A program made the position numbers. DNA of 61,412 nucleotides from IMG/VR virus record IMGVR_UViG_2563366956_000010; one strand, written 5' to 3'. This stretch comes from a virus (lineage: Duplodnaviria; Heunggongvirae; Uroviricota; Caudoviricetes). This document shows, one piece after another, positions 17,901 to 20,900 of the stretch (position 1 is its first letter; each line of letters opens with the position of its first letter).

Positions 17901-20900
17901 AGCTGGCAAAAGCCAGGGCGTATGTTGTCGACTATTTGAAAAAGCGAAGAGAGTAAAAGTGTCATTTTGAGCTGTTTTGATGGTGTGTAGACATCGGGAA
18001 CATCGAAAATCTATAAATATATAATTATAGATTTATATAAAAAGTGCTTTACAGGTGGGAAAAAATTTCCTATGGTTATACCCGAAACCGAGCGATACCC
18101 GCCCTGGTTAAACCGGAGAAATCTGATGAATAAACAAGTAATTATTTCTGACTGGATCAACAACCCTAACAGCCTGTTAAGCACTGATACTGGCTACCTA
18201 TTACGCCATGTTAATGGTCGTATGGTCAAAAGCGATGAGCACGAAACCTTTTTCTTTGTTGAAGACGATGGGCGTATCTATGAGGATGGTTACTCTTATG
18301 AAGCCCAAACTGGTTGTATCCCTGCGGAGCTGGTGGATGTAACAGAAGATCTGCGCAAAGCATGGCTTGAACAGCAGCAGCGCGGAGATGATTACGTAAA
18401 CACCTATCAGGAACGCCAGAACGCGCGTCTTGCCCGATATATTGCTCGTGCAGAAAAAGCCAGAAAAGAAGGTGCGGTAGCGCATAAGCGAGCGCATGAC
18501 CTGTTGGATGTGATCCCGTTAGGCCAGCCGATTTTAGTTGACCATTATAGCGCGAAAGGCCATCGCCGCCGTTTGTCTAAAGCTGATGCGTTATTCAGAA
18601 AAGCGTTTGTTGAATGCGAAAGTAAAGCATCACACTACGAGAGCAAAGCCGCAGGTGTTGGTCGTAATGGAATTTCGTCTGATGATCCTGATGCGCTATT
18701 TAAGTTGCTTCGTAAGCTGCAAGGCTGCATGAAGTCACACGTCAAAATGAAGGCCGCAAATAAGGCCATTCGCAAATACAAAAAAGACCAAATACAGCAG
18801 CTTTCTGCATTAATCGATCTCAGGTTTACAGAAAGCGAAGCCAAAGAGTTACTGGCCGGAGATTTCTGTGGGCGCATCGGATTCCCTTCATACGCACTGA
18901 GCAACAATAACGCCGAAATCAAACGACTACAGAGCCGTATTAAGGAGCTTGAATCGGTCAAGTCTGTAACAGGAGCACAGCGCGAAGAATACGACGGCTT
19001 TTCTATGGAGATAGATCCAGAGGATAACCGCATCCTGTTTTATTTCCCTGGCAAACCAGAGGCAAACATTCGTTCGCTGCTTAAATCACGCGCCTTTAAG
19101 TGGAGTCCAACCCGTAATGCATGGGTTCGCAAGATTACTCCAAACGCCCTGGCTGATGCCCGATATCTGAAAGAATCGCTATTGAAAGCCTGACAGTAAG
19201 CCTACGGCGGGATGTCTCCCGCCGTATATAGAATTATATATTTATATAAATGTATAAGGACGCCTCGACAATGAAACGCAAAATTATTAACCCCCAAGAT
19301 GTGATTAATTTCCTGACCGATCACCCATGTTCAAAAGTGGACGTAATCGCGGAGCACATTGGTGTGTCGCAGAACTCTATGCGTTGCAGACTGAGAAGCA
19401 TGGTTGCCGAAGGACAGATAACAACCAGGAAAATAAATGGTTGCCTGTACTACTCCGCTAAACCGGAATTGCCATTTGGCATGAATCCTAACTCCATGTT
19501 GTTTAACACCTTATTAGCCAAAGTTAAGCCGTTGAGAGGGGCTGTGGCATGAGCATCAAAACACATACCGGAATAATCATTACCAATGATGGTGAGAAAA
19601 AAGTGAAGTTGCGCGAGACGCCGACAACCTGGTGTGTTGGTCCGAAAGAAACATATCGCAAGGAAGATGGCCGTCGTTGTGGGGCACCACTTTCCCGCCG
19701 TCGCCTCCTTTTGAGCACGATAAAACCTATCGGGCAGGTTGAGCAACCAACGACTCCGGTAACGAAGATTTCAGACAAGAGTCTGGCAAACCTGATCGCC
19801 GATGCGGACAAGGTGCTGGAGCGGAACACCCCCGTTGCAGATGAGGAATGGTGGCAGGATTTCCGAGCCGCAATGCTAGAGCTTCAGGAACGTCGTCGGG
19901 AGGAGTTGAAGTGAGCAAGAAAAATGCCGGATGGGTCAGGCCAATGAAGGCGAATAAACATCATTATTTTAATGAAGGTGAAGTAACCAGCATTTGCGGC
20001 CGTTGGATGTATTTTGGTGATTACCGTGAGCCAGACACTTTTGAGAGTCCTGATGATTGCGTGTCTTGTCGCCGGAAATTGAACAAGGTGGCTTCTAAAT
20101 GAAAGAACGTGGTGTTGTTTTTAATGACGATATGGTTAGGGCCATCCTCGAAGGAAGGAAGACGCAGACTCGCCGACCTGTAAAAAATGTCAGGGCCGAT
20201 AACTGCCTGGTTATCCGTAAACCGACAAAGAAACGCAATGGTGTCTATACCCACGTTATGGATGCACCGGAACATGGTTTATGCCCGTTCGGTAACGTTG
20301 GTGATCGCATATGGGTCCGTGAAGCGTGGGCGATATTAGGCAATGAGGATGGTTGCAGTGTGGACTGGAACGACAACCTTTGTCGTGGCGATGAGAAGAA
20401 CGCAGCAAGGATTTATCGGGCCAGTTGTGAGCAAAAGTCTGGTGATTACGGTTTATGGTCGATACCCGATGATGCCGACTGGAAACCTCACACTGTGAAT
20501 GAAAAGTTTGATGGCGGGTGGCGTCCATCAATTCACATGCCGCGCTGGGCTTCACGTATTTTGCTGGAAATTACCGACGTGCGTGTGGAACGGCTGCATG
20601 ACATGAGCGAGGCAGATGCTAAAGCGGAAGGCGCATCTCCGGCGACGTACAAGATTACACCGCCGGAAGCTGTTTATCGCGTTGGCTTTGGTGATATCTG
20701 GCGCGGTATTTACGGGCAAGAGAACTGGCTATCTAACCCGTGGGTATGGGTAATTGAGTTTAAACGTATTCAGGGGGCAACCAGTGAGTAATTCCGCACG
20801 GCTACAGCTTGGTTTTTCACCGCTATCAAAAACCATCGTGTTGGCCAAAATGCGCGATTTAGGTGACGGAACAAAACGCCGTGTAGGCAATGATCGCGGT

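Follow-up and report, generated by a model that had tools for sequence, protein, structure and literature searches.

The KorC repressor of the well-studied IncP-1 plasmids (RK2/RP4, R751, pDCA-1) acts through an operator, OC, placed between the -35 and -10 elements of the promoters under its control. In RP4 these are the klcA, kleA and kleC promoters (PMC12365149), and klcA is the RP4 gene induced most strongly upon transfer into a recipient (PMC7314908). Kor repressors are autogenous (PMC10871194). In RA3 (IncU) and in the IncL/M plasmids (pOXA-48) KorC is also a small global or autogenous repressor with a site between -35 and -10 (PMC7414963, PMC12365149); that of the pOXA-48 korC operon promoter is a predicted site (PMC12365149). 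We describe here a promoter-leader cassette of about 110 base pairs (bp) present three times (copies A, B and C) in the IMG/VR virus record IMGVR_UViG_2563366956_000010, 61,412 nucleotides (nt) of phage-plasmid DNA; this whole stretch was analysed and is called the window. As judged from its sequence, the cassette is a relative of the IncP-1 module in an unusual host, a phage-plasmid. We consider it probable that a KorC-type regulon has moved into this replicon, where iterons of the partition protein replace the operator of KorA.

The three copies, a fourth promoter (D) bearing the same operator and the korC-like gene behind it, which encodes 95 amino acids (aa), are located as follows.

18007-18128, + strand: copy A, comprising iterons, promoter and leader up to the ATG
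18007-18042, + strand: copy A iterons (four ATAKAWTT units), upstream of the -35
18048-18076, + strand: copy A promoter, with -35 TTTACA (18048-18053), 17-bp spacer and -10 TATGGT (18071-18076)
18056-18072, + strand: copy A operator TGGGAAAAAATTTCCTA, a KorC-type 17-bp palindrome whose final TA also begins the -10 hexamer
18077-18125, + strand: copy A leader, with the Shine-Dalgarno sequence (SD) GGAG at 18115-18118 and the ATG at 18126
24963-25080, + strand: copy B, comprising iterons, promoter and leader up to the ATG
24963-25077, + strand: parts of copy B, i.e. iterons 24963-24994, -35 25000-25005, operator 25008-25024, -10 25023-25028 and SD 25067-25070
57821-57939, + strand: copy C, comprising iterons, promoter and leader up to the ATG
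57821-57936, + strand: parts of copy C, i.e. iterons 57821-57852, -35 57858-57863, operator 57866-57882, -10 TAAGGT 57881-57886 and SD 57925-57928
56253-56281, + strand: promoter D, TTGCCA-CA-TAGGAAAAGATTTCCTA-CCAT, with a perfect operator at 56261-56277 and the same spacer geometry
56308-56595, + strand: korC-like gene, 95 aa, homologous to KorC; proposed repressor of promoters A-D

A reading of the DNA made without database searches (the sequence-only reading) had described three near-identical promoter-leader repeats at the head of three different units. They stand where it placed them: a 75-nt core has three matches in the window at ≤1 mismatch and none in 100 shuffles, and a repeat search of the window gives one 127-nt family (18012-18138, 24964-25090 and 57822-57948). 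The repeats lead to start codons at 18126 (a DUF3560 protein), 25078 (89 aa) and 57937 (126 aa). From the AT-rich box through the ATG, A and B do not differ by a single base; relative to them copy C has a T to A change in the -10 (TATGGT to TAAGGT) and an altered spacer between SD and ATG. The upstream in-frame ATG of A and B falls within the -10 hexamer and is gone in C. Thus the shared stretch of 18 codons is untranslated leader and not protein, as the same reading had proposed.

The promoter it had recognised (TTTACA, 17-bp spacer, TATGGT) was recovered by a promoter scan, and in all copies the promoter is of the sigma70 type, TTTACA, 17 bp, TAnnGT. Its general account, of co-regulated promoter-leader cassettes, also holds, but it overlooked the operator: a 17-bp palindrome, TAGGAAA-N3-TTTCCTA, takes up the spacer, and its last TA provides positions 1-2 of the -10. 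Copies A, B and C read TGGGAAAAAATTTCCTA and the perfect palindrome TAGGAAAAGATTTCCTA is found in promoter D. The window contains exactly four such palindromes for 0.26 expected (0 of 100 shuffles reach four), and has no further site at ≤2 mismatches beyond A, B, C and D. Promoter D is built in the same way, with TTGCCA, a 17-bp spacer and TACCAT, and its -10 again begins with the TA that ends the operator; it has no upstream iterons and its leader is different. The korC-like gene, which adjoins repA, has its ATG 31 nt downstream of site D. Over 37 distinct variants of the cassette the -35 TTTACA is essentially fixed, and the -10 varies at positions 3-4 only (TATGGT, TAAGGT, TAGTGT, TATTGT), T1, A2 and T6 being kept. 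Transcription from copy A is predicted to start near 18083-18085; the leader, of about 42 nt, closes with GGAG-ATG.

The promoter of copy A is homologous to klcAp and kleAp of IncP-1 (AAAGTGCTTGACAGG...). These two are laid out as AAAGTGCTTGACAGGC (-35 context), TAGGGCATTTTGCCCTA (operator) and ATAT (-10 tail), and copies A and B as AAAGTGCTTTACAGG, TGGGAAAAAATTTCCTA and TGGT, respectively. The leader of kleAp through the ATG is AGCACTTGAAGGCCGGGCAT.TCGCCCAGGTCAACTACCGGAGAAAGTCCGATG, that of A and B TATACCCGAAACCGAGCGATACCCGCCCTGGTTAAACCGGAGAAATCTGATG. When the leaders alone are aligned, window and IncP-1 klcA/kleA score 18-24 versus -8 ± 4 for shuffled sequences, and 0 of 2000 shuffles equal this. 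The two systems have in common the -35 context (AAAGTGCTTKACAGG), the leader and SD, a 17-bp palindrome with TAGG...CCTA ends that fills the spacer and overlaps the first -10 bases, and a repressor gene that itself stands behind an operator-bearing promoter. Both also carry several near-identical promoter-leader cassettes per replicon, klcAp and kleAp being such repeats in IncP-1. Disparities nevertheless appear. The operator core is GGAAA-N3-TTTCC in the window versus GGGCA-N3-TGCCC in IncP-1; the cassettes sit on an IncFII-RepA phage-plasmid that has a myovirus tail, and not on a conjugative plasmid; and the genes driven are unrelated to klcA/kle, the cargo proteins of the three units having no homology to KlcA, KlcB, KleA or KleE. 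The KorA operator OA (GTTTAGCTAAAC) is not above chance in the window, and no KorA homolog was seen among the window proteins. The position that this operator occupies in IncP-1, upstream of the -35, is taken here by the iterons of the partition (par) locus.

With the KorC annotated on pDCA-1, an IncP-1 beta plasmid, the 95-aa protein has 48% identity (E value 2e-18); with P0058, its most distant database homolog, it has 52%. On an IncP-1 contig (L044) the gene of P0058 immediately follows klcA-klcB and precedes oriV, kleE, korA, incC and korB, an order that places it at the korC position. By tblastn 563 plasmids have a homolog of the 95-aa protein; the distant ones are widely (in hundreds of cases) annotated KorC, and the phage-plasmid copies, that of the ATCC 25922 plasmid included, “hypothetical protein” throughout. 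Identity to KorC-annotated genes of Enterobacteriaceae plasmids is 33-41%. The KorC proteins of RA3 and IncL/M are less similar in sequence to the window protein and, in contrast to it, have as targets operons for replication, stability and transfer in conjugative plasmids. These comparisons make the 95-aa protein a KorC homolog, and most likely the regulator of the repeats. A full-text literature search gave no paper linking KorC to phage-plasmids, the papers that name both treating unrelated subjects.

The element is found again in related phage-plasmids: 62 PLSDB plasmids carry it, nearly all with exactly three places, as do three isolated Yersinia pestis phages, at syntenic sites. In relatives these sites are before the DUF3560 gene, after an MT-A70 methylase gene and after higBA. 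Scans of viral contigs and species-representative genomes with leader and promoter patterns gave close relatives or chance matches (L030, L031, L037-L043) and nothing else; the more distant examples were found via protein look-ups. Three relatives that have the backbone in common (L027, L035, L036) are without the korC-like gene and without these promoters. In the Salmonella plasmids L003 and L004 the copies are 88-92% identical to those of the window and, within a genome, the three carry common clade-specific changes in the spacer, the first transcribed bases and the leader; on this pattern the three copies evolve in concert. The two variants of the SD spacer and those of the -10 have a mosaic distribution over the copies in different genomes, which points to exchange of sequence between copies. 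The synteny in all relatives, the concerted evolution and the invariant -35 and -10 T1, A2 and T6 support the earlier proposal that the copies are alike through a shared regulator and not by chance duplication.

Promoter D is kept in the Salmonella, Enterobacter and Klebsiella relatives, where all four sites have the centre ATA/TAT, D being the exact reverse complement of the A/B/C site. On a Yersinia contig (L033) we find GCTTTACA-CA-TAGGAATAAAATTCCTA-TTAT after iterons of its own and followed by an unrelated leader. The operator, TAGGAAT-AAA-ATTCCTA, is there changed symmetrically in both arms (GGAAA/TTTCC to GGAAT/ATTCC), a covariation such as would be expected for the binding site of a symmetric dimer.

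A truncated cassette was also observed outside the phage-plasmids. Positions 1444-1491 of L005, an E. coli conjugative MOBC/MPF_T cfr plasmid (NZ_CP037908), hold a copy C truncated by IS26 (iterons, -35 and half operator), next to a related higBA and a related pair of parA and small-protein genes. Thus the module has moved into a conjugative plasmid as well.

A different regulator is suggested by the gene that precedes copy A.

17579-17956, + strand: 125-aa sigma-region-4/Q21-like protein; its gene ends the cI-controlled early operon and immediately precedes copy A

The repeats could be loading sites for a Q-type antiterminator, this 125-aa protein, which would bind the promoter and modify RNA polymerase so that it passes the terminators downstream, as at PR'-qut of lambda/21, but we regard this as unlikely. 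The layout is comparable: the gene is immediately before copy A, as Q is before PR' (10.1101/651190), the promoter looks constitutive, strong terminators come after the first genes of units A and B and before the lysis genes, and the binding element of Q21 is also between -35 and -10 (PMC6606751). With the AlphaFold2 (AF2) model of the protein (predicted local distance difference test, pLDDT, 77) the top six Foldseek matches are Q21 (E value 0.3-0.65, template-modelling score 0.44-0.52); this structural similarity is nevertheless weak, generic sigma region 4 folds scoring equally. Searches of Pfam and of PDB sequences gave no significant match for the protein, and NCBIfam a weak full-length one with the PA0613 family (Pseudomonas pyocin region). 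Its own family (31 homologs) conserves an N-terminal ELWARW...GCN...RCQF and a C-terminal helix-turn-helix (HTH).

The spacer site itself argues against Q: it is a palindrome homologous to the KorC operator, whereas the Q21 site is made of direct repeats. In contrast to lambda/21, the initially transcribed region contains no conserved -10-like pause element, the only candidate, GATACC, varying at positions 5-6 (CC, CT, GT, GC, AC), mostly without T6. Moreover the fourth operator precedes a plasmid-maintenance gene, where there is no terminator logic, and the Q-like gene is retained in relatives without this promoter type. For these reasons the 125-aa protein, whose Q-like reading frame the sequence-only reading had suggested testing with each copy, was rejected as the common regulator of the repeats. 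It may be an antiterminator acting on the long rightward transcript, which would not be the reason for the repeats.

Two other DNA-binding proteins were considered as binders and rejected. The region of the cI-like repressor has different palindromes, ACCAC-N5-GTGGT (15432-15605); several of them lie between the cI-like gene and the early operon and are probably the operators of this repressor. The promoter region of the HigA antitoxin has TATAAC...GTTATA (~57070-57120).

In distant relatives the region after the Q-like gene (L027 9260-9420; L035 8848-8940) shows a TTGAY-N4-RTCAA palindrome, the iterons of the clade and a -10 TATATT. About 70 nt further on, L027 has a strong terminator, making a PR'-tR'-like cassette for a short transcript.

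Could the conserved leader be a functional RNA, i.e. a put/nut-like antitermination signal, a riboregulator or the target of a translational regulator? It is the same in all three copies and is recognisably conserved even with respect to the IncP-1 klcA/kleA leaders, and a small hairpin GAGCG-loop-CGCCC, inside AACC...GGUU, is possible, variation being in the loop. The predicted folds are however weak (-9.6 to -13.5 kcal/mol, z score -1.1 to -2.2), no compensatory pair changes were seen among the compared copies, and no Rfam family matches in the repeats. In the Yersinia relative L033 the promoter and operator are retained but a different, unrelated leader follows them, and at promoter D, too, the operator is joined to another leader; the leader itself was never found apart from the promoter, its other matches being due to chance. 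An RNA function thus appears very unlikely; where the sequence-only reading had left the choice between a common regulator and an RNA element, the regulator is favoured. The two GGTTAWACC half-palindromes it had seen in the leader are both present in the window, but the first is not conserved in the Salmonella relatives (GGTAGTAACC).

Returning to the KorC-type regulon, the part of the cassette upstream of the -35 relates the repeats to the par locus, whose genes and iteron clusters are listed below.

13212-13460, - strand: 82-aa ParG-like protein, proposed iteron binder; its gene follows parA
13471-13506: iteron cluster between parA and the 82-aa gene (iteron pattern)
13504-14172, - strand: small ParA/ParF-type ATPase (Pfam CbiA/ParA/MipZ)
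14179-14210 and 14252-14283, - strand: iteron clusters flanking the parA promoter
19228-19255, + strand: iteron cluster after the DUF3560 gene (iteron pattern)
23824-23859, + strand: iteron cluster after the lysis genes and before a tRNA (repeat search and iteron pattern)

The AT-rich box reported near -55 by the sequence-only reading is present; what had escaped it is that the box is an array of 8-bp iterons common to the parA locus, four in number and extending from about -70 to -38 (ATAGAATT, ATATAATT, ATAGATTT and ATATAAAA). A 16-nt iteron pattern has 38 matches in the window versus 0.96 expected, in eight short clusters: three in the copies, three around parA, one after the DUF3560 gene and one after the lysis genes. 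Distant family members, reached via homologs of the 125-aa protein, have other AT-rich 8-bp iterons. In each of four clades the words of the parA promoter recur beside the phage operons of the same genome, in intergenic DNA and within that clade only. Iterons adjoin phage promoters in every clade of the family, and their specificity differs per clade. The least probable of the alternatives is that the box is a mere UP element or H-NS/Fis site without a dedicated binder, gene conversion alone keeping the repeats alike: immediately before the -35, AAAAAGTG is similar to a proximal UP subsite, and the shuffling of SD-spacer and -10 variants indicates that copies do exchange sequence, but exact 13-16-nt iteron words in 8-bp register occur again at the parA promoter and at four other intergenic sites, and the iteron words of distant relatives differ, each set matching its own par locus.

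We infer that the iterons are most likely bound by the 82-aa ParG-like protein of the adjacent parA locus. The AF2 model, of low confidence (pLDDT 66), gives it a disordered basic tail followed by a strand-helix-helix topology, and one distant ortholog carries an AT-hook. Its match to ParG (1P94) is collinear and not significant (E value 1.2); searches of Pfam, NCBIfam and PDB sequences were without significant match, and a Foldseek search with the model returned noise only. The par locus is a candidate type Ib (ParF/ParG-like) locus, a type in which a small ParA without an N-terminal HTH is followed by a small ribbon-helix-helix protein. ParG of TP228 is such a protein, with a flexible tail and a gene that follows a small ParA, and it binds parH, an array of tetramer boxes with AT-rich spacers (PMC3130281); the 8-bp register in the window agrees with such an array. 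Unlike for ParG, iteron binding by the 82-aa protein is putative. In having short repeats arrayed not only at the par promoter but at further promoters too, the window is comparable to the systems of KorB/OB (IncP-1), ParG/parH and omega (pSM19035), partition proteins that bind DNA and also serve as regulators; omega and KorB are global repressors. In N15 the centromere sites IR1-4 are spread through the genome. That phage resembles the window as a plasmid-living phage with several separate partition-protein sites (PMC7205306), but differs from it by a type Ia SopB and 16-bp inverted repeats, where the window has 8-bp AT-rich iterons at promoters.

A translation-start context, GGAG(T/A)C(C)TCGACA(A)ATG, was observed at the head of parA and of several unrelated genes in different family members (14150-14175 and 19240-19252 in the window; 6370-6388 in L029; 2880-2900 in L033).

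The units headed by the repeats, and the terminators around them, are the following.

18126-19193, + strand: first gene of unit A, DUF3560 protein with a primase-C-like tail
19204-19225, + strand: GC-rich hairpin closing unit A; the Salmonella relative has a hairpin and T-run at the same place
22174-22201: strong terminator before the lysis genes
25078-25544, + strand: unit B genes, 89 aa and 66 aa, of no known family
25566-25595, + strand: strong intrinsic terminator closing unit B, its position kept in L003
26265-26291, + strand: second terminator of unit B
57789-57815, + strand: intrinsic terminator insulating copy C from the upstream higBA operon
57937-58317, + strand: unit C gene, 126 aa, of no known family

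Because a hairpin or terminator closes units A and B, the repeats probably head short units and not entire middle or late operons. No terminator was seen between 17956 and 18126, so that after SOS induction cI-controlled early transcription could read through copy A; an ORF6N/Rha antirepressor-like gene is present as well.

We propose that each repeat would work as a full cassette, composed of partition iterons, a sigma70 promoter with a KorC-type operator and a short klcA-like leader with its SD. The KorC homolog would be made from promoter D, which has the same operator; the korC-like gene is thus probably autoregulated. In the plasmid-prophage state a KorC-like dimer would bind TAGGAAA-N3-TTTCCTA and block RNA polymerase at A, B and C. 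In a KorC-free cell, i.e. upon fresh infection, the three promoters would fire together and then be shut off as the repressor accumulates, driving mainly the short terminator-closed units (DUF3560; 89 aa and 66 aa; 126 aa). The KorC-controlled klcA/kle promoters of the IncP-1 kil-kor system are likewise active on entry into a new host. The iteron-bound ParG-like protein may add repression or provide dispersed centromere sites.

Several observations weigh against parts of this scheme. The left arm of the E. coli-type A, B and C operators is TGGGAAA, one mismatch off perfect symmetry. If KorC stays bound, expression of the units after SOS induction is left unexplained. A second small HTH gene (58948-59208), downstream of unit C, encodes a possible binder. 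As to the iterons, their assignment to the 82-aa protein is based on the weak ParG similarity, the fold search having returned nothing, and a 124-aa protein from the same operon could be the binder instead.

More tentatively, the phage-plasmid might have wired both a KorC-type repressor and the centromere-binding protein of its partition system onto phage units, giving an “establishment” burst in naive cells followed by silencing, with the iterons as dispersed centromeres. If this is true, segregation, immunity and lytic programme would be coupled through one 110-bp module. Phage-plasmids are increasingly recognised as carriers of resistance and toxin genes, and very little is known of how they are regulated, P1 and N15 excepted. 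A kil-kor-type KorC circuit would here belong to a common E. coli/Salmonella phage-plasmid family, including the 48-kilobase (kb) ATCC 25922 plasmid, and four of its promoters now have a concrete candidate repressor-operator pair. Such a circuit would also mean that phages and conjugative plasmids exchange regulatory cassettes, and the partition protein is a possible regulator of phage promoters.

The window is a member of this E. coli family of ~48-kb phage-plasmids, which includes the ATCC 25922 plasmid (L001) and Yersinia pestis phages (L002). Its backbone consists of an IncFII-type repA, higBA, the small parA locus, a cI-like XRE/S24 repressor gene facing the early operon, and a single long run of rightward genes (middle, lysis, head and P2-like tail).

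The window also has cargo of its own. A complete microcin B17 operon, which the 48-kb relatives do not have, occupies 453-5597 on the minus strand: the McbA precursor (69 aa, rich in glycine, serine and cysteine; 5388-5597) is followed by McbB-, McbC- (nitroreductase) and McbD- (YcaO) like genes, then by McbE-, McbF- (ABC ATPase) and McbG-like (pentapeptide repeat) genes. There is also a Tn3-family transposon (6057-12037) with perfect 35-bp inverted repeats, which carries a transposase (8996-12004), a resolvase (8281-8913) and a 700-aa open reading frame (6169-8271). An identical left end of the transposon restarts at 61321 and continues past the end of the window (61321-61412). That the window wraps a 55-kb circle was considered and rejected, because its 95-bp end repeat belongs to another copy of the transposon, of which it is the left end. 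A copy of the transposon probably lies on either side of the mcb operon.

By the right end of the transposon, C4 antisense RNA and isrK match Rfam above the gathering score (12136-12321, minus strand), and by the other transposon end there is an ORF6N/Rha antirepressor-like gene with a 55-aa gene (60030-61336, minus strand). The insertion seems to have broken up a c4-ant operon like that of P1 immI, with a possible effect on how this copy of the phage-plasmid is induced. A second, decayed transposon lies between the tail-fibre genes and repA (52448-53991). It retains a TEM-type Tn3 inverted repeat (52448-52487), the gene of a 286-aa class A beta-lactamase (52595-53455, minus strand) and, at 53638-53970, a resolvase-like remnant whose identity to the other resolvase is 77%. 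Finally, the ryfA RNA family gives a full-length match of 142 bits at 12693-12989 on the plus strand.

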